A stretch of 64,000 nucleotides of DNA from Naegleria gruberi (lineage: Eukaryota). Positions 39,343-52,796 of this stretch are shown piece after piece; positions within the stretch are counted from its first letter, which is position 1; every line of letters starts with the position of its first letter. The notes under the pieces are model-generated. The model worked only from the letters and a program-made list of their open reading frames with translations. It made no database searches and was not told the DNA's origin. Position numbers and translations under genes: made by a program. The stretch is from assembly GCA_000004985.1 (NCBI GenBank), contig GG738851.1. The stretch is one strand, 5' to 3'.

Positions 39343-42300
39343 TTAAATTTCCAGTTTGGCTTGTTTGAGTAGATTTTCCTTGTAATTTACAATTTCTTGA
39401 TAGGTCTTGAATTGTTGTGTAAAAATGAATCTAGAAAGAGTATCGCTCAGATTGAAACGAATTTGATTTTGAAGAGATTCTATTGATTCTGTGATTGATT
39501 CTTTCAAACCTTGTGGGAAGTTCATTGTCTTTTTACTTCCCATATTTTCTGCACTTTCTAATTCAACATTCAAATTATCTACAGAATCTAATCTCTTGAC
39601 TAGAGATGCGAATAATTTAGAGCAATCTGATGAAATATTAACTTCTTTCAAGGCTCCCATCTGAATATAAGTAACATAAATATGATTAATGACAGTTTTG
39701 ACTTGTTGGAAATCATTCAAACTTTCAAGAATGTTTTGGTTATTTCTGAGTTCCAAATATAATTGTAAATTTTCGAGTGAATATTCTTTTTCACAGAACC
39801 ATTCAAATAATTTCAAACCTTCACTATGCTCAATGAGCTTTCTAATATCGTCATCATCATCCTGTTTCTCCAATTGTTTTTTCTTGAATTTTTGAATGAT
39901 TAGAATAACCAAAGAGTAACCACCAAACACAAACAAATAACTAAACATGTACAAAATGTCAAACAGTAATGAGATGGAATCATTCAAGAGCAACATCTTT
40001 AGGGAATTTTCTTTTCTGAATGACAATCCTGACAGGCCAATGATTTGTGAGATTACCAAACACGTAAAACACATTACAAATAGACACATTTCAGCTCTAA
40101 AGTAAAGTGGTGAATCCAACCTTGTAAAAGCTTCACGAATTCCATATAGTGGCATTCTTAGAGCTTTTTTAGTTGCTGTGAAATTTTCAAATTTTTCTAA
40201 ACTCTTGCCAGTTATTAAATCATTTAAGGAAAAGTTGAGATTTGTTTTTTCATTATTCTCCTGACCTTGTTGTATAATTTCTCTTTCTTTTCTCTTTGAT
40301 ACGCATGTCATTATTAATTCTAATCCAATAATGCAACAAGTGATGAATCCTAATAAGAGAATGGAGCAGGTAAAGGAGATAGAAACAATATGAGTATAGG
40401 TCAAGCTTGTAATAACCCCAACACGAATAAGAATTACCCATAATACCCAATAAATCACATTCAGTGAAATGAAAAGACACATGAGTATTAGCATTACTCT
40501 TGTTGAAAGGAATAATTTTGTCAACTTGAGAATAGTTTCACCCTTTGGCTCTTTAGAATGGAACATAATATATATTTGATGATAAAAGTATTTCAGTACT
40601 TGGAATCTCACAACTTGATATAAATATGAAAAAAAAGCCGTTAGTGTCATTGTGTTTACAATAATTGTAAAAATATTGGAAATAATATTAGCAACCAAAT
40701 CACCATTCTGTAATTGAATAACTGTTGATTGACTTTGTTCAAAATCCTGCTGATTGCCAATAACACTATTGGCATAGCCCAGTAAAATTCCTCTCTGAGT
40801 GATTAACAGCATTGAACATTCAATAATGAGAGCTGTTATTCCAATATAAGGCGTAATAAATCTACTTCTTACTAGAATTGATTTTCTAAAGGTAACCAAA
40901 AGTGTAAGTATTGTAAGTGAAAGAAGCAAGAATAAACTACCAAATGAAATTTGGGCAATGTAGAGAGAGGAAATTTGCCTGAGATATTCAGTAGATGATG
41001 GGGTTTCTTGTTCAATAAATGCTGCAAAGAGAGTAGCATGATTACATTGGCAGATTAACTGATTAGTTTTGTTGTTAAAACTGAAAATTGAACATCCGTG
41101 GCTTTCCCATCTTTGGTTTGTTTCGTTCCAAAATTGACAACTTAATAACGAAGAATTCGAAATGGAAGAGTTAGTATCTATAGTGAATGTGATGTAAATA
41201 GGATCTCTTAGGTCGGATAAAGAGATTTGTGAACCAGATTTGTACATTGTAAATTCTTTTGATTTGGTTAATTGTGTGGAATTTCCATTGATATATAAAT
41301 TTTCATCAAATGTAATAAGAGACAAACCAATTTCGGAATAATAACCATCATATTTCGAAAGTATATAATCTGTAGCAAAGGAAACATCATTATATATTTG
41401 AGAAATGGTTCCAGTGTTAGATGTTTTGAAAAAGCTTGTAGTTGTTATGTTGATTAGATGTGAAATATAGGAATTAGGCACCATTGAATCTGAATAAACC
41501 TTTGCGTTTTGCTGACTGAGGATAATGGAAGATAATTGATTGCAGATATTCGATATATTAACGTATCCATTCAGCAAAATATTGCTCGTAGTTGATAATG
41601 TATTGAAAAGGTCAGTATCGGACATTCTTTGCTTGGATATAAACCCATTTGAATTCTTTTCAATTCTAACTTGTTCATATACTTTGGACAAGTACTCGTC
41701 TAATTTAGAACTCACTATGTAAGCTGATTTTGTTTCCAAGGAACTTGATGTTAATTGATTAATGACAGAAAGTGTCAAAGAAGGATTTTCGAATTGAATG
41801 TTAATGCTTCTAATGGATTCGTAAAGAATATCTGTATTTTGATTTGCTGATTGATCATATGGTACAATATTGGCCAAAACATTGTTAAGCCTAATTCTCA
41901 AAATCAAATCGTTCAAATCCTCAGAGTTTGGGATCACTTTCACAGAGCCAATAAATTCAGGATATTCATTAAAGAGACTATCTCTACAAATGACATATAA
42001 ATTAATTGAACTAAATGACATGTCATTTGTTCGATTATTTTGAATGAAAGGAAGATAGGTGGTGAGAGAGCTATTAGTGGAAAACTCACTCAGTCTAATC
42101 AAACTGTTCTCTCCAAATGAGTTTATGAACTCGAAACCGAAAGAGAACTCAAGATTGCCAAGAATGGGATCTGGTACTATCCAATTATTTAAATCTTCTT
42201 GAATTGTGAAAAGTGATGAAAGAGCCATACCTGATTGAGGTAAAATGGTGGCATTCGAATGGATTCTTTGGGGTGGTGAAATTAAAGGAAAACTCTCAAC

Positions 42301-45300
42301 AAATTCTACAGATTCTGTTATATTCATAGAGTTGTGGAATTTGACACTTAAAGTAACATTTCCTTGAAGTGAAGATGTAGTTCCTTTCAAGGAAAGAATA
42401 GGTCTAAACGAAAGTTTGAATAGTCCATTGGAAACCTTTCCATGATAATAAGCTATCAAAGATTCTGGCACATAAAAACTAGTTTGATTACCATCACTTA
42501 TTTTCCAAGAATACTTTAAATTTGTCCAAGTACAATTCGTGCAATTATTAGAATTAATAATCGATTCAAAATCTCCCTTTTTAAGAATCACAGAAACAAT
42601 GGACATATAAAATGAATTACTAGTTCCCTTAACAAAACCAGCAGGTTTTCCAATGATTTCTAATGACCTTTCTTCTCTACATTCGTTTCCAACAAATTTC
42701 ACTCCTTCATGACACTTGCAAGTATCAATTCCAATACATTTTCCATTTCCTGAACACACATTCGGATCATTAGATAGTTTTCCAAAGCAGGATGTTAAAT
42801 TACAGACTAATCCTTCTGGTGATTGAGTAAGGATATAGTATTCTTCTTTACAATAAGGAGAAAGCATTCGTATACGGTCATTGCCTGAATCTGAAAATAT
42901 TATTCTACCGTCGCTCAATACTGATAAACCCTGTGGATTGTTAAGATATGCTTGTTTAGCATCGGAATCTCCATTGAATCCTGCTGTTCCATTACCAGCT
43001 ATTATTGTACTATAGCCATTTAAATCTACTTTTCTAATGACATTGTTGTTGGTGTCAGCAATCAACATTTCGCCATTTGACATGTAAGTGAATGAGATAG
43101 AATAACCAAAGGTTGTATTTGTAGAAAAGGTTGTTTGATTCAATAACATTGAATCAATAACGTAACCACATTCCTTTTTCCCTGCTACTCGAGTCAAAAT
43201 TCCAGTTCCTGAAATATTAGTTTTCAATATACTACATCTGTCACTAAAAACTAGCTCATTATTCCTTATTTTCATATCGTAAATGTCTAAACTAGTATAG
43301 TTTGTTGGTACATTGTCTTCCATTTCCACATAATTGTAATTACCAGCAAATGTTGTAATAATTCCACTTGAGAATGAAACTTTTCTAATTCTATAAAAAC
43401 TATCTGACAGATAAATTTCATTATCAGTGAGGGCTAATGCTCTCACAAACCCAACGTAAGCATTGACAGCTAATCCATTATCACCAATACCACCTGCAAT
43501 AGTTTTAACAAAACCAAATGGTGTAACCTTTCGAACTCTATAAAAATCAGTATCACTAAATATCAATTCATTTGTAAATGGAGAAAATGCCACTCCAAAT
43601 GGATGGTTGAGGTTTGTACTAGTTGCCTCCAAATCTCCAGAAAATGGAGGTTGGACAACTCCTTTGGCTCCAGTTCCAGCCACGTTATACACCACATCTG
43701 ATCCATAATTCATCTTTTTGATAATGTGGTCAAGATATACAGCAACGAAGAGATCACCATTTGGAGAGAAGATAATTTGTGAAGGAAAGTTTAAACATGT
43801 TTTGTTTGCATAGCTTGTAGTACTGAAACCAGTGCATCCAGGAATATAGCCAATAACTGTCTTGATTAATCCCTTACTATCAATTTTTCTAACCATAAAT
43901 GAGTTCATATCTGAGAAGTAAATTTCATCTGTAATTGGGTGAACTGAGATTCCAAAAGGTGCTATATTGGTTGCTAGAGCAGCAAGACCATCTCCATTAT
44001 AGGAATAAACCCCAGTCCCAGCAATTGTTGTTATTAGACCAGTACTGTTACTAATCTTTCTAATTCTGTAATTTTCAGAGTCACAGAAAATAATATCACC
44101 ATTAGTTTCGTTGTAATAAACTCCTGTTGGCCCATTTAGAGGGGCAATAATTGCAGGACCCCCATCTCCACTATAACTACGGACACCAGTACCAGCGACG
44201 GTGGTTACTTGATTCGTCTTGGCAGTGAACTTTCTAATTCTTTGATTGTTTAGATAGTTGCCAAAAAACAGCATACCATCGCTTATAGAATCAGAAATTA
44301 ACAAATCGCCATTCGATAGGCAAGTGATGGCAGATGCAAAACCTATCCTGGCAGTTAATGCATCCCCATCTCTGTATCCTGATACTCCATCTCCAATGAA
44401 TGTTGAGATTATGCCATTCGAATCAATCTTTCTAATAACATAATTTCCAGCATCCACAATGTAAATATCACCTGTTGGACCAACACAAACACCTCTTGGT
44501 TGTGACAATTGAGAATAGATACCTTGATAACCATCACCAGCTAAGGTTGTCCTTGTTCCAGCAATAGTGACAGCTCTTTGATCGCTCTTTCTCAGTTTCA
44601 TAACCAAATTTTCAGATCCAACGTAAATGTCACCATTTGATAGAGATTGTACAACTGATCGCGGATAAATTACATCTGTTTCATTTCCAAAATTACCATC
44701 TGCAGAATACGCTCTATTACCAGTACCTAAAATTGGTTCAATCTTTGAGGAAGTATAATTTGATAGAGAATTCAATCTTATAACTCTGCTATTTCCCCAA
44801 TCAGCAATCAGTAATTCATCAGTTTGAGAATTGTAAAAAGTTCCTCTTGGTCTATACAAAGCTACAGAGCTTCCAACAATACCCATATATTTTCTCAAGC
44901 CATTTCCTGCTAATGTTGTAATTATTTTTGTATCCAAATCTATTCTACGTATTCTAAAATTGGAAGTGTCTGCAACGTACAAGAATCGTCCAGAAATAGC
45001 CAATCCTGTTGGATTATTCAAAGTTGCATTGATAGCAAGACCTCCATCTCCACCAAAAGCAGCCACTCCAGCATCGTTGGCCACAACTGTACGTACACTA
45101 TTCGAAATCTTTACAATTTGATGAGTTGACTCTGCCAAGTAGAAGTCTCCAAATGAGTCAAAAACCATTCCAATTGCCCCATTTGTACCACTATACAATG
45201 TGAATATTCTTCCTTCATTGGTGATTCTTCTGACCCTGCCAGTTTCTTCCAAATAAATTAATTCTCTAGTTAGTGGATGGAAAGTTAGAGTCAAAACCTT

Positions 45301-45981
45301 TGCAATACTTGCACTCGCTGCAAGAGATCCTTCTGGTGTATTTTTGTCCTCCACGCCTGTTCCTGCTATGGTATAGATGGTCCCATTAACTATCTTTCGT
45401 ATCGTATATTTGTAAGTATCACTAACATAAATTACATCATTTGCTTCATCAACTAGCAAACCAAATGGAGCACCCAGTTTGGCATCCAATGCAGAAATAT
45501 TACTCGAAAGATTTGAACCACCACCAGCTAGTAAGAGCATTGTATCTTGGCCATAGGAATTTTTATAGACCTTTCGAAGAGTGTTTTCATCTGTAAAGTA
45601 AACCTCTCCTTTAGAATTCACTGCTACACAAAATGGCCAATGAATTGAAGTGGTGGCAGGTGTGGGTCCTTTTGGAAAGTTTGTAGAATCAAAATTATAA
45701 TTGGGATTTCCAGCGAGAAAGTAAGAGTTTCCATCTGGTTTAATGTATCTGATCTGATTGTTTAAATAATCAGAGTAGTATATATTTCCAGTAGTGGAAG
45801 AAATAGCAATAGTTTGTGGCCAAAACATGCCAACAGTTAATGCGTTTTGCCCATCTCCATTAAATCCTCCAAGTAGTGTTGTTATCTTGTAGTTAACATT
45901 TGATGCAGTAGATTGGTCTCCTTTGGCGTTCGCTAGCAGAAGTAAGACAAAGATATACGTCATAAGATTAGAACATGACAT
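39343..45981 (-). CDS. giant adhesion-GPCR-like receptor: signal peptide, NHL-repeat beta-propeller region, EGF-like, GPS motif, 7TM, C-terminal RGS domain
   Basis: Uninterrupted 2212-codon ORF. N-terminal signal peptide MSCSNLMTYIFVLLLLANAKG. About 900 aa of NHL-type repeats. EGF repeat CFGKLSNDPNVCSGNGKCIGIDTCKCHEGVKFVGNEC. GPS motif CQFWNETNQRWESHGCSIFSFNNKTNQLICQCNHATLFAAF lies immediately before 7 hydrophobic helices. RGS box KLIEHSEGLKLFEWFCEKEYSLENLQLYLELRNN sits after TM7. Confidence 0.85.
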   Translation of the reverse strand: MSCSNLMTYIFVLLLLANAKGDQSTASNVNYKITTLLGGFNGDGQNALTVGMFWPQTIAISSTTGNIYYSDYLNNQIRYIKPDGNSYFLAGNPNYNFDSTNFPKGPTPATTSIHWPFCVAVNSKGEVYFTDENTLRKVYKNSYGQDTMLLLAGGGSNLSSNISALDAKLGAPFGLLVDEANDVIYVSDTYKYTIRKIVNGTIYTIAGTGVEDKNTPEGSLAASASIAKVLTLTFHPLTRELIYLEETGRVRRITNEGRIFTLYSGTNGAIGMVFDSFGDFYLAESTHQIVKISNSVRTVVANDAGVAAFGGDGGLAINATLNNPTGLAISGRFLYVADTSNFRIRRIDLDTKIITTLAGNGLRKYMGIVGSSVALYRPRGTFYNSQTDELLIADWGNSRVIRLNSLSNYTSSKIEPILGTGNRAYSADGNFGNETDVIYPRSVVQSLSNGDIYVGSENLVMKLRKSDQRAVTIAGTRTTLAGDGYQGIYSQLSQPRGVCVGPTGDIYIVDAGNYVIRKIDSNGIISTFIGDGVSGYRDGDALTARIGFASAITCLSNGDLLISDSISDGMLFFGNYLNNQRIRKFTAKTNQVTTVAGTGVRSYSGDGGPAIIAPLNGPTGVYYNETNGDIIFCDSENYRIRKISNSTGLITTIAGTGVYSYNGDGLAALATNIAPFGISVHPITDEIYFSDMNSFMVRKIDSKGLIKTVIGYIPGCTGFSTTSYANKTCLNFPSQIIFSPNGDLFVAVYLDHIIKKMNYGSDVVYNVAGTGAKGVVQPPFSGDLEATSTNLNHPFGVAFSPFTNELIFSDTDFYRVRKVTPFGFVKTIAGGIGDNGLAVNAYVGFVRALALTDNEIYLSDSFYRIRKVSFSSGIITTFAGNYNYVEMEDNVPTNYTSLDIYDMKIRNNELVFSDRCSILKTNISGTGILTRVAGKKECGYVIDSMLLNQTTFSTNTTFGYSISFTYMSNGEMLIADTNNNVIRKVDLNGYSTIIAGNGTAGFNGDSDAKQAYLNNPQGLSVLSDGRIIFSDSGNDRIRMLSPYCKEEYYILTQSPEGLVCNLTSCFGKLSNDPNVCSGNGKCIGIDTCKCHEGVKFVGNECREERSLEIIGKPAGFVKGTSNSFYMSIVSVILKKGDFESIINSNNCTNCTWTNLKYSWKISDGNQTSFYVPESLIAYYHGKVSNGLFKLSFRPILSLKGTTSSLQGNVTLSVKFHNSMNITESVEFVESFPLISPPQRIHSNATILPQSGMALSSLFTIQEDLNNWIVPDPILGNLEFSFGFEFINSFGENSLIRLSEFSTNSSLTTYLPFIQNNRTNDMSFSSINLYVICRDSLFNEYPEFIGSVKVIPNSEDLNDLILRIRLNNVLANIVPYDQSANQNTDILYESIRSINIQFENPSLTLSVINQLTSSSLETKSAYIVSSKLDEYLSKVYEQVRIEKNSNGFISKQRMSDTDLFNTLSTTSNILLNGYVNISNICNQLSSIILSQQNAKVYSDSMVPNSYISHLINITTTSFFKTSNTGTISQIYNDVSFATDYILSKYDGYYSEIGLSLITFDENLYINGNSTQLTKSKEFTMYKSGSQISLSDLRDPIYITFTIDTNSSISNSSLLSCQFWNETNQRWESHGCSIFSFNNKTNQLICQCNHATLFAAFIEQETPSSTEYLRQISSLYIAQISFGSLFLLLSLTILTLLVTFRKSILVRSRFITPYIGITALIIECSMLLITQRGILLGYANSVIGNQQDFEQSQSTVIQLQNGDLVANIISNIFTIIVNTMTLTAFFSYLYQVVRFQVLKYFYHQIYIMFHSKEPKGETILKLTKLFLSTRVMLILMCLFISLNVIYWVLWVILIRVGVITSLTYTHIVSISFTCSILLLGFITCCIIGLELIMTCVSKRKEREIIQQGQENNEKTNLNFSLNDLITGKSLEKFENFTATKKALRMPLYGIREAFTRLDSPLYFRAEMCLFVMCFTCLVISQIIGLSGLSFRKENSLKMLLLNDSISLLFDILYMFSYLFVFGGYSLVILIIQKFKKKQLEKQDDDDDIRKLIEHSEGLKLFEWFCEKEYSLENLQLYLELRNNQNILESLNDFQQVKTVINHIYVTYIQMGALKEVNISSDCSKLFASLVKRLDSVDNLNVELESAENMGSKKTMNFPQGLKESITESIESLQNQIRFNLSDTLSRFIFTQQFKTYQEIVNYKENLLKQAKLEI

Positions 45982-47872: not shown

Positions 47873-48857
47873 AATTGAGTGAAATTTTACTATATTTGGC
47901 AGAAATAAGATTGTTTTATTTGCATCTGATAACATTAAAAAGACTGAAAAGTACTTGCTGGTTGCCCTTCAGCAACAGAAATAATATTAACTGTTGATGG
48001 TTTAGAACCAGTCAAATTTCATCTTTGGCACTAGTATTTGGTACTTGGCTTGTGTCTTGATTGCTTCTGCCTCATTCATTAAGATTCTCTTGAAAGAGAA
48101 CTTGATTTGAAAATCAAAAAGGAAAAACCTTCACAGTAATAGTAGTTGAAGCTCAGAAATTGGAGAGTCAATTTGATCAAGTGAAATGTTGAGTGTTCCT
48201 GAGGACCCAAGTTTGATTGATGGTACAGCACTTAGTTAGAGAATTAATTGGCTAGGCAATCATTGTAAAACCAAAATATTAATATTCAATAATGCACATT
48301 CAACGTTTATCTACTGAACTCCTAATTCATAACATTCTAATGTCAATTCTGTGTTTGCTCCATGTTCAATTATGACAAAGAAGTCAAATCATGAAAAAAC
48401 AAAACAACGACCATAATTCAGTTTTCAAAAACCATCCATCGAGAGAGGTTTTTAAGATTTGTTCGACTTTACACTCTTTGCTTTCTTCATACTTACCTTG
48501 AAGGACATTTCAGTGATCATGCAGACTGAAATGTGAATCTGGAAACTCTCCTCCTTGCACTCAGAGAATGAGTAGCCAGTGTTTGGTCAATAATCAAAGT
48601 GGTTGTTGCCCTCCTTCTCAATTTTTTCCTGTGAGGATTCATCAGGTATGATTTCTCGCTCTGTTAAATAATAGAAATTCAATGAAAATATGTGTGGAAG
48701 TGGTCTTGCATTCAAGAAGGCAATTTGTGAACTATTCAACAATGGAATTCGAAGAATCTCCAACAACTCAATTCAAAGTCATCCATATTTTGCCAATATA
48801 AATCGTCAAATTGTAAATGATTGTGAGAAATTTAATATTGAATGGTATTAAGAAATA

Positions 48858-48863
48858 AAAAAA
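48858..48863 (-). terminator. Pol III T-run terminator of the 5S gene
   Basis: Oligo-T on the transcribed strand (plus-strand aaataaaaaaa) lies directly 3' of the 5S 3' end. Confidence 0.5.
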
Positions 48864-48981
48864 GACTACAGCACCACAGGTTCCCAAGTTGTCTCCAACC
48901 TCAGTACTGATGTGGCTCTACGATGCTTAACTTCTCAAATCAGACGGGATGAGGTGTATTCATCGTGATATGGCCGTAGCC
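48864..48981 (-). rRNA. 5S ribosomal RNA
   Basis: Minus-strand sequence GGCTACGGCCATATCACGATGAATACACCTCATCCCGTCTGATTTGAGAAGTTAAGCATCGTAGAGCCACATCAGTACTGAGGTTGGAGACAACTTGGGAACCTGTGGTGCTGTAGTC is followed by a T-run. It matches the eukaryotic 5S consensus blocks (CGGCCATA, CCCGTC.GAT, GAAGTTAAGC, AGTACT, GGGA.AC, GGTGCTGTAG), and helix I (GGCTAC/GTAGTC) pairs. Confidence 0.85.
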
Positions 48982-49779
48982 ATTCATCAAATCAAAATAA
49001 CAATCTTAAACAGGCTATACATGATTAAGGGTCAACTATCTCTGCAAAATATGTTGCTGGGATCTTTAAACATTGTTTGTATATATTTTGTTTTACTATT
49101 CAATGAATAATTTATTAAAAACAATTGAGAGAATCTATGAGTTTGTTCTTGTTTTTTCTTGAATTCAAAACATTTTCTTGCTTTTTATACTTGTTTTGAG
49201 ATGTTTATATTTTAAGAAAGTAGTTCTTGGGTCAATAATCAATTTTAACTTGTTGTTTGTGAAATGCAATTTGACTCTTAATGAAAATGTTCTGATTTTG
49301 AATTGGAAAAATTTAATACTAGTAAAATGGTTTGAGAACAACTATTCATTACTCAAAATCAATCTTTAACTTTATGAAAAGATATACCGTAGCCATTTAT
49401 TGCCTTAATACAATGAATAAATCAATAAAAAAATAAAGGAATAAGTTAAGATATTTAAGTTGAGATATTATTGTTGTCTTTCAATTGTTAATTTAGACGG
49501 GAAGCCTGCCAGGAATATGGCGACTATCCCGCTACAGTCTTTGACTGTATGAACAGTGAAGGCAAGAGTTCTGGACGAATCTTGTTGTGTTTAAATAACA
49601 GGTTGTTGAAGAATTTGATAAGGTTAATCAACCTTCAATTTATTGAAAACTAGACAAGTTTAATTGCTTGATGCAAATTTTGGTTTGATTTTTTCTGCAT
49701 CAATTCTAAATTGAAACTTCATCTATTTCAAAACACATTATTTTATTTACAATTTACTGAATTATTTACAAGTTGTAAT

Positions 49780-50070
49780 TTACATCTTTTTCGATTTGGT
49801 AATCTTCTTTGTTGTGGTGGTTGATTGTTGTTTAGCTCTCTTTTCAATTGAATTTTTAGAAGATCTTTTCACTGAAATTTGTTTACCATTTAAATTTGCA
49901 TGATGATAATCAATATTATTACGATGTCTAGTTCCACTTATAATATTTGAAGTATCAATATCAAATAATGGTAATCTTTTAGTTAAATCAATTGGTTTAG
50001 ATCTTGACCAGACTGTTTTTGTTGGAATTCTATCTTCGGAAGAATTTGATGAAGTATTTCTAGCTGGCAT
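49780..50070 (-). CDS. small basic Ser/Thr/Lys-rich ORF (possible nuclear or ribosome-associated protein); uncertain
   Basis: 96-codon ORF between the two 5S genes. ATG context is aaaATG. Very basic C-terminus KRAKQQSTTTTKKITKSKKM. No homology recognised. Confidence 0.3.
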   Translation of the reverse strand: MPARNTSSNSSEDRIPTKTVWSRSKPIDLTKRLPLFDIDTSNIISGTRHRNNIDYHHANLNGKQISVKRSSKNSIEKRAKQQSTTTTKKITKSKKM

Positions 50071-50363
50071 TTTGCTCTTAGTGTTTGTTATTTAGTTATT
50101 TTGTTTTGTTGTGGAAATATCATCATCCGATCAGTTATCTATTTATTTACAAGATGATTTCCACTAATTTTGTGATTCCGATTTTTAGTGCATCACAAGA
50201 ATTTGAATTTTTCTATTAATATTTTGATGAAAGGAAATTTAATACAAATCAACAAAACAAATTGAAGAGAAAATGAGAAACAAACAATTCAAAATGTGGT
50301 AAATCCTTTTAACTCCAATTTTGTAAACCTAAAGGCCTCCTGTAGATTTTTCTAAGACAAAAA

Positions 50364-50481
50364 GATTTCAGCACCACAGGTTCCCAAGTTGTCTCCAACC
50401 TCAGTACTGATGTGGCTCGACGATGCTTAACTTCTCAAATCGGACGGGATGAGGTGCATTCATCGTGATATGGCCGTAGCC
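50364..50481 (-). rRNA. 5S ribosomal RNA, variant or possible pseudogene copy
   Basis: Same orientation as the other 5S gene and exactly 1500 bp downstream of it. It has about 6 substitutions. Two fall in the 3' strand of helix I (GAAATC instead of GTAGTC), leaving two mismatches against GGCTAC. Flanking sequences are unrelated. Confidence 0.7.
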
Positions 50482-50956
50482 ATCATTATTTTTAAAATAT
50501 GAAATTTCAATCAAAAGAGATTCGGGACTAGTAGCAAAAGGACGGATCGTTTTTATCTCCACCGTACAAATGATAATCTTTACTGTGTTAAAATCTGATA
50601 ATTCACTTTTCTAAACGAACAGAACAATGATCACACCAAGCACGTGAACATCTAATGAGCATACTAGCGTTAACTAGTATTTTATTATTAATAATAAATT
50701 ATGGTTGTTTGATTGGGGTATTTAAGTACAAAGGATGTTGAAGATGATCATCAATGATTCTGTGTTAATTTCACAAATCCACAAATCTTTACACTCGTGT
50801 GTGAATATATCTGACACGAATTTTGGAATATATATATAATACATCAAAATGTTAAAATTCATCACACATGCCACACACAATAGTAGTGGTACATTAAATG
50901 TGAAAATCCAACACAATCATGTGAGTGATCATTTTCTAAATAAAAAGGAATTTGGT

Positions 50957-51493
50957 TTAGTTGATGAAAGCCTTACCAAGGAATTTACGCTTGCTGAATT
51001 GCATCCAGTACTTGTCAGCAACACCATCTTCCTTGAAAATTAATTTAGCCAAACGCAAACCTAATTCTTCCTTAGCTTGCCTCATGTAGGAATCCCATTG
51101 CTTCTTTTCATTGGTATCTCTTGGCTTATCGTAGAAAGCAATAAGAGCAAAGGAAGAATCACCTGGACCTGGGAGAGCTTCTTCACTCAATTGGAAGTAG
51201 AGTTTATCAGCATCGGCCTTCTTTGTTGTCTTCTTGTTTTCAGTGTGCTTCAACAAGAAGTGTGTGTACATGGTGAGGTAAATCAATGTACGATCAGCTG
51301 GGCTTTCAACTTGGTAAGATCTAAACAACATGTTAGACTTGAAAAACTTTAAAACTTCATCAATAATATCTTCCTTGTTTTCATCGAGTTCCTTTGGAGC
51401 AGGTCCCTTGACTTTAGTCTTCAATGGCAAGATTGCGGTACCACAATAAACTTCGCATTTAGCATCTTTGAATGAACTATGATAAGCTGGCAT
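50957..51493 (-). CDS. ARPC3: Arp2/3 complex subunit 3 (ARPC3, p21-Arc)
   Basis: 178-aa single-exon ORF. Similarity to ARPC3 orthologues runs along the whole length: MPAYHSS..., ILPLKTKVKGPAPKE, DIIDEVLKFFKSNMLFRSYQV, DRTLIYLTMY and ELGLRLAKLIF. Confidence 0.9.
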   Translation of the reverse strand: MPAYHSSFKDAKCEVYCGTAILPLKTKVKGPAPKELDENKEDIIDEVLKFFKSNMLFRSYQVESPADRTLIYLTMYTHFLLKHTENKKTTKKADADKLYFQLSEEALPGPGDSSFALIAFYDKPRDTNEKKQWDSYMRQAKEELGLRLAKLIFKEDGVADKYWMQFSKRKFLGKAFIN

Positions 51494-52796
51494 TTTGATG
51501 ATGATTTAAAAATTGATGATGAGTTTAATCGTTGTTGAATCTCAGGCAAGAAAAATTCCCTCTCAAAATTTTAATATTTTTTTTTGATGACTTGCTTGTT
51601 TTCCATCACAACTCGAAGGCTTGCTGATTGATGAATAAAAATCACCATCATCAGATTTTTCCAATCACCATTGAATTCTTTTGGTTATTAATGTTTGGAA
51701 AGAGGTAGTTTTGAGTGAATGGCTGATTGGAGGAGGCTTCTTGACAACATGTTGTCTACCTACAATGAGATTATCTTTGCTTTTGAGAATGAAATGGTTT
51801 AAATCAGGCTGGACCTCTCTGGGTTGACTTTGAAAAAATCAACACGAAAAAAAATTAAAAATTCTAAAATTTTGCATTTTCATTCAACAACTGCATATCC
51901 ATAATGAAGTTAGTGATGCATTATATCAAAATTGCAAGGGATGATCAAATTCTAAAAGATGCAGCAGCTTTTTTAGCCAAGCAGAGAAAACCAAGCTTGT
52001 CCAAAAAGAAGCAGTTTGCTCAACGGCGCTTGTTTTGATGGTGCGAGTTTTTCAATTCACCCAAAAAAAAACCACTCAAACCCTATCAGTCTGAACAAAC
52101 AAGTGTTGGAGCTTGTTGCTCTCTTTACTCTACTTATCCGACCCGAATATATTCATCATACCACCATCACTCTTTGAAAGAGAGCACACATTCTTGTAGT
52201 CATTGTGTATTCCGTATTACAACTTATCATCAAAGAGAGTTTTTTCCAGAATCCGCGCCCATTCTTTGCAAACTTACTTGGAGAATCCAAAAATAATCAT
52301 CACTGTAGAGCATTAAAGCAAAGAGAGCAGAAGAACACTTGATCTGTTAGAGTTCATAGAAGATCTTGCACAATTATCATCCAAAGTACTCCTCCGTTAT
52401 TTAAAGTAGTAGGTGCTGAGAGTGAATCACTACCCTGCTATTATTTCCAACATCAAGCGCTTGACTTGTTTCATATTTAAATTTTCATTACGTAAAAAAA
52501 AGCCAACATCGGCTTCCTTTGAATCCCAATCACCACCACGATCCTTTGTGTTGTTGGACAGCTGTTGCCTCTCACTATTTGCTGCTCCTTCATTCATTTC
52601 CTTACACTTCATTGTCCCCACTACTCATACATTCCTAAGCTTTTCCTACCCAAACCCTTGTATACAACATTGTACTCTAACAAGAACATTCAATTAATTG
52701 TACCATTTACTATTCATTCAACAAGCAATTAGAATACACCATTACTACTACAACTAATACCACCATCACTTGAATAACACCATCCGATAGTCAACA

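Follow-up and report, generated by a model that had tools for sequence, protein, structure and literature searches.

Two 5S rRNA genes 1500 bp apart in Naegleria gruberi as probable ordinary members of a dispersed gene family, one with recent substitutions in helix I

Two 5S rRNA genes of the same orientation lie close together on scaffold_7 of Naegleria gruberi, and their regular spacing raises the question of whether they are the remainder of a tandem array or two separate members of a dispersed family. A further question is what the substitutions in the closing helix of one of them mean. The window, that is, the whole stretch of 64,000 nucleotides that was analyzed, derives from N. gruberi scaffold_7, and its ARPC3 ORF matches N. 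gruberi P21-ARC with 100% identity. As a feature, the pair is already known and ordinary. It is highly likely that it represents two ordinary members of the known family of about 279 dispersed 5S genes, of which copy 2 has recently acquired mutations that weaken a helix. The two genes and their putative signals are the following.

48863..48981, minus strand: 5S rRNA gene copy 1 (RF00001 105.7 bits, model positions 1-120; MFE -41.2 kcal/mol with helix I formed)
48857..48863, minus strand: T7 run, presumed Pol III terminator of copy 1 (from sequence and alignment; the first T is 5S nucleotide 119)
48982..49011, minus strand: upstream block of copy 1, -30..-1 (TTTAAGA at -29..-23, ATTTTGA, TGAAT at -5..-1)
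50363..50481, minus strand: 5S rRNA gene copy 2 (RF00001 96.4 bits, model positions 1-120; two non-canonical pairs in helix I)
50359..50363, minus strand: T5 run, likewise presumed Pol III terminator (of copy 2; from sequence and alignment)
50482..50511, minus strand: upstream block of copy 2, -30..-1 (TTGAAAT at -29..-23, A/T-rich ATTTTAA at about -17..-11, TGAT at -4..-1)

Both copies match the Rfam 5S rRNA covariance model RF00001 over its full length, against a gathering score of 38 bits, and the initial annotation of two 5S genes in the same orientation is thereby borne out. The scores of the two copies are unequal. Their start-to-start spacing is exactly 1500 bp as described, and they differ at 5 of 119 positions, the resulting identity of 95.8% agreeing with the earlier estimate of about 95%. 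Outside the gene, the common sequence amounts to only about 30 nt on the upstream side and about 10 nt on the downstream side; the remaining flanks are unrelated, as had been noticed.

Each gene would constitute an independent RNA polymerase III unit within a unique intergenic context. Such a unit would consist of a TTGAAAT-type upstream element with an A/T-rich box, an internal region with box A-like and box C-like sequences, and a T-run terminator. Box A (GTTAAGC) is located at +51 in both copies, which also have one and the same box C-like sequence, deviating from the published consensus at two positions. Judged from sequence, both copies would thus combine an internal control region with a downstream T-run, the type-1 arrangement of Pol III genes. 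T-runs act as terminators of Pol III transcription; the clean run observed earlier behind copy 1 comprises seven Ts, and that behind copy 2 five. For the upstream element, six copies were compared in register. TTGAAAT occurs in the same register as in copy 2 in N. fowleri (two genes), in metagenome contig L006 and in the sister-lineage contig L001; among four independent genes, three carry it in register. The element of copy 2 is nearer to this Naegleria consensus than the weaker version of copy 1. We infer that the conserved block acts as a promoter element. A TATA box and an ICR have been reported for the N. gruberi 5S genes (PMC3369914).

The exact spacing and the identical orientation are what would be expected if the pair were left over from, or marked the edge of, a tandem 5S array whose unit measured 1500 bp, and Table 1 of the published catalogue (PMC3369914, PLoS One 2012) scores a tandem arrangement as present in N. 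gruberi. This reading is essentially refuted. The supposed units have in common only the gene and about 40 nt of immediate flanks, the interval contains a unique protein gene (the CHZ gene described below) that has its own paralogues elsewhere, and the Rfam search of the whole 64-kb window detected only these two 5S copies at the gathering score. Canonical tandem arrays, such as those of vertebrates, plants, and trypanosomes, resemble the Naegleria family in the gene itself, in the Pol III signals, and in containing variants or pseudogenes, but their spacer is repeated and their period fixed; this pair has neither homologous spacers nor a fixed period. The published coordinates lead to the same result. 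Table S1 of PMC3369914 lists 279 putative N. gruberi 5S genes, among them the pair as R33586 and R33587 (scaffold_7 144862-144978 and 146362-146478, 1500 bp apart). Our analysis of these coordinates places the 279 loci on 117 scaffolds; 207 of them stand alone, and the others form 30 loose pairs and 4 triplets. Spacings within the clusters are irregular and vary continuously (462, 1104, 1500, 1680, etc.), and a second pair with 1500-bp spacing was not found elsewhere in the published 279-locus list. The exact 1500-bp spacing is a coincidence. The clustering as such exceeds chance: 32 pairs lie within 5 kb versus 9.3 expected (P = 5e-9), and about a quarter of the copies occur in loose pairs or triplets, 0.5 to 6 kb apart, at about 3.4 times the random expectation. 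With no homologous spacer, irregular published spacings, and 207 of 279 loci as singletons, the initial view that the pair is not a simple tandem array holds, and no canonical 5S tandem array of which it might form the edge is present in the published coordinates. The label "tandem" given to the N. gruberi arrangement in Table 1 is contradicted by the coordinates of the same paper, which describe dispersed singletons and loose pairs; taken alone, these coordinates may be compatible with a collapsed or unassembled tandem array.

The catalogue contains the same two loci and reaches the same conclusion, that the 5S genes are unlinked to the rDNA unit (PMC3369914). It is without discussion of per-copy variants, of the helix I defect of R33587, and of the neighboring U1 and CHZ genes. 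In N. fowleri, too, two 5S genes are located near ARPC3, dispersed between protein genes. The sites of the two species cannot be called orthologous, however: the gene order differs, the N. fowleri neighbors are Brix and Ank, and no Brix was found among the window ORFs scanned.

The five differences between the copies can be polarized. G25, C40, and C63, as well as U114 and G116, are common to N. fowleri (two genes), L006, and L001, the ancestral state being drawn from only four independent relatives; a metagenome scan for further Naegleria 5S copies yielded one locus only. Copy 1 is derived at sites 25, 40, and 63, because copy 2 matches the state of N. fowleri, the metagenome, and the sister lineage. 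These substitutions, G25A (window position 48957), C40U (48942), and C63A (48919), are all structure-neutral, and copy 1 retains an intact five-helix fold with standard pairs in all helices I-V. Hence, the three internal changes that had been attributed to copy 2 are reversed in direction. Of the earlier proposal that dispersed, linked, diverging copies are worth recording, the dispersal and linkage stand; the copies were already recorded in Table S1, and their divergence had been mis-polarized.

The derived substitutions of copy 2 are confined to the 3' strand of helix I, namely U114A (50368) and G116A (50366). They turn GUAGUC into GAAAUC and create the mismatches C3.A116 and A5.A114, which confirms the helix-I-disrupting changes seen at the outset. 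The closing helix thereby loses two of its nine pairs, and helices II-V are untouched. In the predicted MFE structure of copy 2 (-35.2 kcal/mol), helix I is absent, a loss of 6 kcal/mol versus copy 1. Two compensatory pair swaps distinguish N. gruberi from N. fowleri, at 68-107 and 69-106, and speak in favor of the canonical 5S fold. Over 1387 nt, the identity with the sister-lineage contig L001 is 99.0%, with only ordinary scattered substitutions around copy 2, and its orthologue of copy 2 has an intact helix I (GUAGUC) at 105.4 bits. Hence, U114A and G116A are recent changes. Both the polarity and the recency of the substitutions are established in this analysis. Two substitutions in 119 nt are not significantly above the neutral rate at 99% background identity, so that decay of copy 2 is not demonstrated.

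Copy 1 can be regarded as a variant that is very probably functional. Copy 2 is probably still transcribed, since its promoter elements appear intact; we infer that its RNA is likely to be processed, stabilized, or incorporated less well because of the poor closure predicted for helix I. Copy 2 is therefore read, on the predicted fold, as an early-stage pseudogene or an impaired variant. An unlikely alternative, though one to be taken seriously, is that both copies are fully functional and that the mismatches form a neutral polymorphic variant tolerated in copy 2, with seven pairs and ribosomal proteins closing helix I. The score of copy 2 is indeed far above the gathering score, its upstream element fits the consensus better than that of copy 1, the two copies do not differ in box A and box C, and the other four helices are intact. 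Against tolerance stand the loss of helix I from the predicted MFE structure with its energetic penalty and the retention of both pairs in all four independent relatives. In the maturation of yeast 5S, an intact helix I matters for stability and 3' processing, and this likewise counts against tolerated mismatches.

It is improbable that the helix I differences are foreign to the main haplotype of the organism and go back to an error of sequencing or assembly, or to a minor haplotype of the polyploid NEG-M genome. An intact sequence is present at the same locus in the sister-lineage contig, and the two changes are merely 2 nt apart, as such an origin would allow; the surrounding alignment is a clean 99% with ordinary scattered substitutions, however, and the window shows no sign of low quality. 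The N. gruberi reference is, we presume, a Sanger assembly, which also counts against an error. Exceedingly improbable is an origin of the copies as retroposed 5S pseudogenes or 5S-derived SINE-like insertions, even though the family is dispersed and of high copy number and similarity stops near the gene boundaries. In the 5S flanks, where retroelement remnants were looked for, neither target-site duplications (the flanks share k-mers of no more than 6, which does not exceed the null) nor an A-rich tail was found, and RT-like or integrase-like ORFs are absent from the region. Moreover, a conserved element outside the transcribed region is retained, which argues against retroposition because retroposition would not carry an untranscribed element. 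The preferred reading thus remains that of two ordinary family members, with recent helix-weakening mutations in copy 2.

The surroundings of the pair are richer than had been assumed. The protein genes flanking the two 5S genes are ARPC3, the CHZ gene, and an F-box gene, and the order on the minus strand is ARPC3, 5S copy 2, CHZ gene, possible 5S relic, and 5S copy 1. The further features of the interval are the following.

48489..48658, plus strand: U1 spliceosomal snRNA candidate (RF00003 48.2 bits, full model 1-166)
49381..49431, minus strand: possible relic of a third 5S gene (promoter-like block and first ~15 nt, ATGGCTACGGTATATC; no similarity beyond)
49485..49600, minus strand (uncertain, taken from the better fold): structured GC island (42% GC, flanks 21-25%)
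49780..50070, minus strand: gene for a 96-aa protein with a predicted CHZ motif, a histone-chaperone motif (PF09649 25.6 bits versus a cut-off of 23.3)

The region 47900-50700 had been described as gene-poor, with a GC content slightly above the intergenic norm and without a convincing protein ORF apart from a basic one of 96 codons. The first two of these statements cannot be upheld. The region contains the U1 snRNA candidate, and purifying selection (dN/dS = 0.16-0.29) marks the 96-codon ORF as a real gene, which is predicted to encode a CHZ-motif protein. The GC content is 31.2% versus 31.7% in the other non-ORF DNA of the window, the 2-kb bin 48001-50000 has the lowest GC of all window bins, and the GC islands in the region are RNA genes only. 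The CHZ gene lies between the two 5S genes as a neighbor and is no part of either. It has ~90%-identical paralogues in N. gruberi (P0121, P0124) and in ENA contigs, which carry the same domain; the exact 96-aa ORF is absent from the annotated protein set. A single duplicated cassette of 5S and CHZ was considered and largely rejected on a comparison of the paralogue contigs L007 and L008: these two share only ~220 bp upstream and the ORF, their similarity fades ~30 nt past the CHZ stop codon, and no 5S is visible in them. An N. fowleri ORF of equal length, 96 aa, has no similarity to the window ORF, and the match in length is a coincidence.

The U1 candidate is convergent with 5S copy 1, their 3' ends being ~205 bp apart. 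Its score remains below the RF00003 gathering score of 69.5 bits, though E = 5e-10 (6 kb searched). It contains a 5' AUACUUACCU, an SL1 loop GAUCAUGCAG, an SL2 loop CUUGCACUC, and an Sm-like AAUUUUUUCC. The predicted architecture, all motifs of which are visible in the cmscan alignment, comprises the free 5' end ACUUACCU, SL1 with a 70K-type loop, SL2 with a UUGCAC loop, SL3, a single-stranded Sm site, and a 3' hairpin, and an independent MFE fold gives a four-way junction with a terminal hairpin. The sister-lineage allele differs at 5 nt, four of them unpaired and one changing G.U to A-U, so that it is structure-compatible. These features suggest a divergent, canonical-looking U1 snRNA. A GTAAGT on the minus strand at ~48495 was considered as the splice donor of a concealed gene; it proved to be the complementary strand of the 5' end of U1. 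A 2008 snRNA survey (PMC2396436) gives a cut-off of 55.7 bits, which the candidate does not reach either, and states that the N. gruberi U1 needed an unfiltered search. The adjacency of 5S and U1 resembles that in some animal 5S repeat units; it was seen at this one locus, and the N. fowleri locus that was examined does not show it. In some arrays, one repeat unit links 5S with snRNA or SL RNA genes. For protists, linkage between genes for small RNAs has been discussed (PMC2784804).

For the GC island, the minus-strand fold of -34.6 kcal/mol has z = -5.1 and was equaled by none of 200 shuffles, whereas z is -2.8 on the plus strand. No Rfam match to the island was obtained at E <= 10; this permissive search gave three weak matches, which concern adjacent sequence only and are taken as chance. 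The possible relic contains at 49387-49396 (minus strand) a third occurrence of the 10-mer ATGGCTACGG, with 0.01 expected by chance. Its local alignment with copy 2 plus 60 nt upstream scores 30; the null gives 20.3 +/- 3.0 and reaches 32 at most. The evidence that 49381..49431 is a decayed third 5S gene is moderate, and such an origin is possible; as a candidate decayed copy between the two genes, it would count for birth-and-death evolution.

Dispersed 5S families are also present in Schizosaccharomyces pombe and Acanthamoeba castellanii. The closest comparison is with Neurospora crassa (Selker et al. 1981, Cell 24:819, cited in PMC5555474) and other filamentous ascomycetes. In families of this type, as in Naegleria, tens to hundreds of single 5S genes lie among protein-coding genes with unique flanks, and each is equipped with a conserved element a short way upstream, a promoter within the gene, and a terminating T-run. 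In both, sequence variants and pseudogenes coexist because homogenization is weak, and many 5S pseudogenes are described for filamentous ascomycetes (PMC5555474). The present pair has unique flanks, protein genes as neighbors, and an upstream block conserved across loci and species. Unlike the N. crassa type, roughly one in four Naegleria copies is loosely clustered, the upstream motif TTGAAAT (-29..-23) is Naegleria-specific, and TFIIIA reportedly could not be detected in N. gruberi (PMC3369914). The family would evolve by birth and death, that is, by local duplication and decay with incomplete homogenization, which would account for the private substitutions in individual copies. Concerted and birth-and-death evolution of 5S rDNA are both documented (PMC3123226).

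More tentatively, the 3-kb interval may be a compact small-RNA cluster with three stages of 5S turnover (one copy intact though variant, one recently damaged, and one decayed to a relic) and two possibly undescribed RNAs, a divergent U1 and a ~115-nt structured RNA without an Rfam family, although we consider this doubtful. The pair itself matters little beyond annotation hygiene, together with the correction of the label "tandem" in the literature on the N. gruberi 5S genes. The by-products may be more useful: a credible heterolobosean U1 locus, an unannotated CHZ-motif gene, and a structured RNA without an Rfam match. The copy-specific SNPs (A25/U40/A63 in copy 1 and A114/A116 in copy 2) are possible natural tags for which copies are expressed. 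For Naegleria, the pair illustrates a dispersed, loosely clustered 5S family under birth-and-death evolution.

The region carries two 5S rRNA genes, each a full-length match to the Rfam 5S_rRNA model (gathering score 38):

48981→48863, minus strand: 5S copy 1, 105.7 bits
50481→50363, minus strand: 5S copy 2, 96.4 bits

As claimed in the initial annotation, they lie on the same strand and exactly 1500 bp apart from start to start, and the coordinates it gave are accurate to one base, the discrepant base being located inside the terminator T-run. This run is T7 after copy 1, where a clean T-run had been described, and T5 after copy 2. The Rfam scores, proposed there as a check, are unequal. Across the whole 64 kb, the Rfam scan revealed no 5S gene beyond copies 1 and 2, and the remaining gathering-level matches are a tRNA-Asp and a tRNA-Val only. 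The two copies differ at 5 of 119 positions, namely 25, 40, 63, 114, and 116. Their homology is limited to the gene, ~30 nt on its 5' side, and ~10 nt on its 3' side; the remainder of the two 1500-bp units is without relation to each other, so the flanks are indeed unrelated.

Both loci have already been catalogued since 2012, when a genome search of N. gruberi listed 279 putative 5S rRNA genes (Table S1 of PMC3369914). Entries R33586 (scaffold_7:144862-144978) and R33587 (scaffold_7:146362-146478) are spaced by exactly 1500 bp, and the list has no other 5S locus in the scaffold_7 segment that should correspond to the window (PMC3369914); hence, they are copies 1 and 2, the offset from window to scaffold coordinates being +95,998. 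The description of dispersed, linked, and diverging copies thus holds for a dispersed pair and fails as a new record.

The genome-wide arrangement was analyzed by a script over the 279 coordinates of Table S1 (PMC3369914), chaining neighbors within 6 kb. The loci are spread over 117 scaffolds and fall into 207 singletons, 30 pairs, and four triplets. The smallest spacings are 462, 1104, 1500, 1680, 1729, and 1786 bp, and no repeating period is found among the spacings of the 279 published coordinates. As read from assembled coordinates alone, which are blind to a collapsed or missing array, the 5S genes of N. gruberi form a dispersed family with loose local clusters and not a canonical tandem array. 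The genome-wide count called for in the initial annotation stands at 279 putative loci, and its view that the pair is not a simple tandem array is borne out by the irregular spacings and the share of singletons. The coordinates of Table S1 contradict Table 1 of the same paper, where "tandem arrangement" is ticked for the 5S genes of N. gruberi (PMC3369914). Adjacent pairs within 5 kb number 32 versus 9.3 expected (~3.4×, Poisson P = 5e-9), the expectation assuming 279 loci in a ~41 Mb genome. This last figure is the size reportedly given in the genome paper. The surplus of close pairs points to local duplication or a regional preference; the 1500-bp spacing itself is a coincidence.

The polarity of the five differences was determined by comparison with four relatives, three of which are associated with the gene for ARPC3:

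50957..51493, minus strand: ARPC3 in the window, a 178-aa ORF with the Pfam P21-Arc domain, 100% identical to N. gruberi P21-ARC (NCBI)
L002:12139-12257, plus strand: N. fowleri 5S gene in the ARPC3 neighborhood, 104.9 bits
L002:14602-14720, minus strand: N. fowleri 5S gene in the ARPC3 neighborhood, 104.9 bits
L006, JGI metagenome locus: Naegleria-type 5S gene, 106.3 bits
L001:1264-1382, ENA metagenome contig: copy 2 orthologue, as far downstream of ARPC3 as copy 2 is in the window, 105.4 bits

L001 is 1388 bp long and 99.0% identical to window positions 50340-51760, with 14 substitutions in 1387 aligned nt. Together with L007 and L009, likewise ~99% identical to the window region, it belongs to the ENA assembly ERZ929261 (PRJEB11402), the sample of which thus contains a very close organism of the N. 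gruberi lineage, or a contaminant; these three contigs were used as a natural allele panel. All four relatives share G25, C40, and C63 with copy 2, and because of this, positions 25, 40, and 63 are derived in copy 1, not as three internal changes in copy 2 as formerly stated. All four likewise share U114 and G116 with copy 1, leaving U114A and G116A as the only changes derived in copy 2. Since the 99%-identical sister lineage retains GUAGUC, these two substitutions are, by this comparison, recent and specific to this genome.

The derived changes of copy 1 are predicted to be structure-neutral: G25A turns a G·U pair with U53 into A-U, C40U is located in loop C, and C63A in the unpaired bulge of loop B. 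In copy 2, the two derived changes place C3·A116 and A5·A114 mismatches into the 9-bp closing helix I, which is missing from the minimum-energy fold (ViennaRNA), with helices II–V intact; the proposed disruption of helix I is, therefore, borne out in the predicted fold. Copy 2 has a minimum free energy (ViennaRNA) of −35.2 kcal/mol, while copy 1 attains −41.2 and N. fowleri 5S −44.2. The canonical fold is independently backed by two compensatory double changes from N. gruberi to N. fowleri (C68-G107 to U-A and A69-U106 to G-C). A decay of copy 2 is a reasonable reading and not a proven one, since two substitutions in 119 nt are not above the neutral rate at 99% background identity.

At +51, both copies match box A (GTTAAGC); they also share one box C-like sequence, which has two mismatches to the published consensus (PMC3369914). 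Upstream, a block stands in register across copies 1 and 2, L001, both N. fowleri genes, and L006. It comprises TTGAAAT at −29..−23 (in copy 2, its orthologue, both N. fowleri genes, and L006; TTTAAGA in copy 1), an A/T-rich box at about −17..−11, and TGA(A)T immediately 5' of +1. As all these signals are present, copy 2 is probably transcribed. For N. gruberi, an upstream TATA box, an internal control region (ICR), TFIIIB, and TFIIIC have been reported, and TFIIIA was not detectable (PMC3369914).

The short upstream likeness of the two copies could be taken for a scar of duplication; because unlinked loci of different species share the block, it is better explained by promoter conservation. 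As for the spread of the copies, retroposition finds no support: target-site duplications are absent from the 5S flanks (longest shared k-mer 6 nt, not above the shuffled expectation), neither copy has an A-rich tail, both keep the external promoter, and the region holds no RT- or integrase-like ORF. The suggested inspection of the flanks for retroelement remnants thus came back empty. DNA-level duplication followed by turnover of the flanks is the simplest account. Between the copies lies a further candidate:

49381-49431, minus strand: candidate relic of a third 5S gene, a promoter-like block plus ATGGCTACGGTATATC

A third instance of the 10-mer ATGGCTACGG (−2..+8 of the 5S gene) is present at 49387-49396, with 0.01 occurrences expected by chance, and the ~35 nt on its 5' side resemble the 5S promoter block. 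The local alignment score is 30; the null from 300 shuffles is 20.3 ± 3.0, and its highest value is 32. Likeness to 5S is absent past ~+15. A third, decayed copy between the two genes is plausible, not established.

The stretch had been described as gene-poor, which does not hold in view of three further elements:

48489-48658, plus strand: U1 snRNA candidate, full-length match to the U1 model, 48.2 bits, E = 5e-10
49485-49600, probably minus strand: structured GC island, 42% GC versus 21-25% in its flanks
49780..50070, minus strand: 96-codon ORF with the Pfam CHZ histone-chaperone motif, above the cut-off

The first, separated from copy 1 (3' end) by ~205 bp, falls below the Rfam U1 gathering score of 69.5. 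It exhibits the exact 5' AUACUUACCU, the SL1 loop GAUCAUGCAG, the SL2 loop CUUGCACUC, the Sm-like AAUUUUUUCC, and a terminal hairpin; an unconstrained minimum-energy fold recovers the U1 four-way junction. The allele in L009 shows five differences, four unpaired and one changing G·U to A-U. The element is a candidate for a divergent yet canonical-looking U1 snRNA gene, and its internal T6 run would speak against transcription by Pol III. A 2008 snRNA survey used a special unfiltered U1 search in N. gruberi with an acceptance threshold of 55.74 bits (PMC2396436); the candidate may be unannotated.

CHZ is a motif of H2A.Z/H2B chaperones. The ORF belongs to a small family, its paralogues in N. 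gruberi (P0121 and P0124) and in ENA contigs being ~90% identical to it at the protein level, with ~220 bp upstream conserved among them. Because its dN/dS is 0.16-0.29, it is a real gene; the exact 96-aa sequence is absent from the annotated N. gruberi protein set. The GC island, 180-295 nt downstream of the CHZ stop codon and followed by a T7 run ~60 nt beyond, folds on the minus strand with z = −5.1 (0 of 200 shuffles equally good) and matches no Rfam family, even at E ≤ 10. Around their start codons, the CHZ ORF (50049-50074) and ARPC3 (51472-51497), both on the minus strand, have similar sequences (CAAAATGCCAGC...), with both proteins beginning MPA. These were detected as a 26-nt direct repeat of 81% identity, probably a common translation-start context or chance. 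Unrelated to the 5S genes, a 2212-aa ORF at 39343-45981 (minus strand) appears, on inspection of its sequence by eye, to combine NHL-like repeats with a transmembrane region and, at the C-terminus, an RGS-like part. The GC content of the 5S region, formerly described as above the intergenic norm, is not elevated, at 31.2% versus 31.7% in other non-ORF DNA of the window; its spacer DNA has 28.2%, and the RNA genes alone stand out (41-50%).

The two N. fowleri 5S genes are identical, oppositely oriented, and 2.4 kb apart; they flank an ankyrin-repeat gene and are nearly identical over 40 nt upstream. The order there (ARPC3, Brix, 5S, Ank, 5S) differs from that in the window, among whose scanned ORFs no Brix gene was found. 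In Willaertia magna, a tRNA gene directly follows Brix (L005 11898-11968, minus strand), where N. fowleri has 5S, and no 5S gene occurs within 10 kb of that locus. The dispersed style of organization is common to Naegleria; orthology of the N. gruberi and N. fowleri sites cannot be claimed. The best parallel is found in Neurospora crassa and other fungi, whose dispersed 5S genes likewise include variant copies and pseudogenes (PMC5555474, with reference to Selker et al. 1981).

Copies 1 and 2 are ordinary 5S rRNA genes of a dispersed family, and both had been catalogued before. Added herein are the corrected polarity of their differences, evidence for a recent helix I defect in copy 2, published coordinates at odds with a tandem arrangement, and the adjacent U1 candidate, CHZ gene, possible 5S relic, and structured element.
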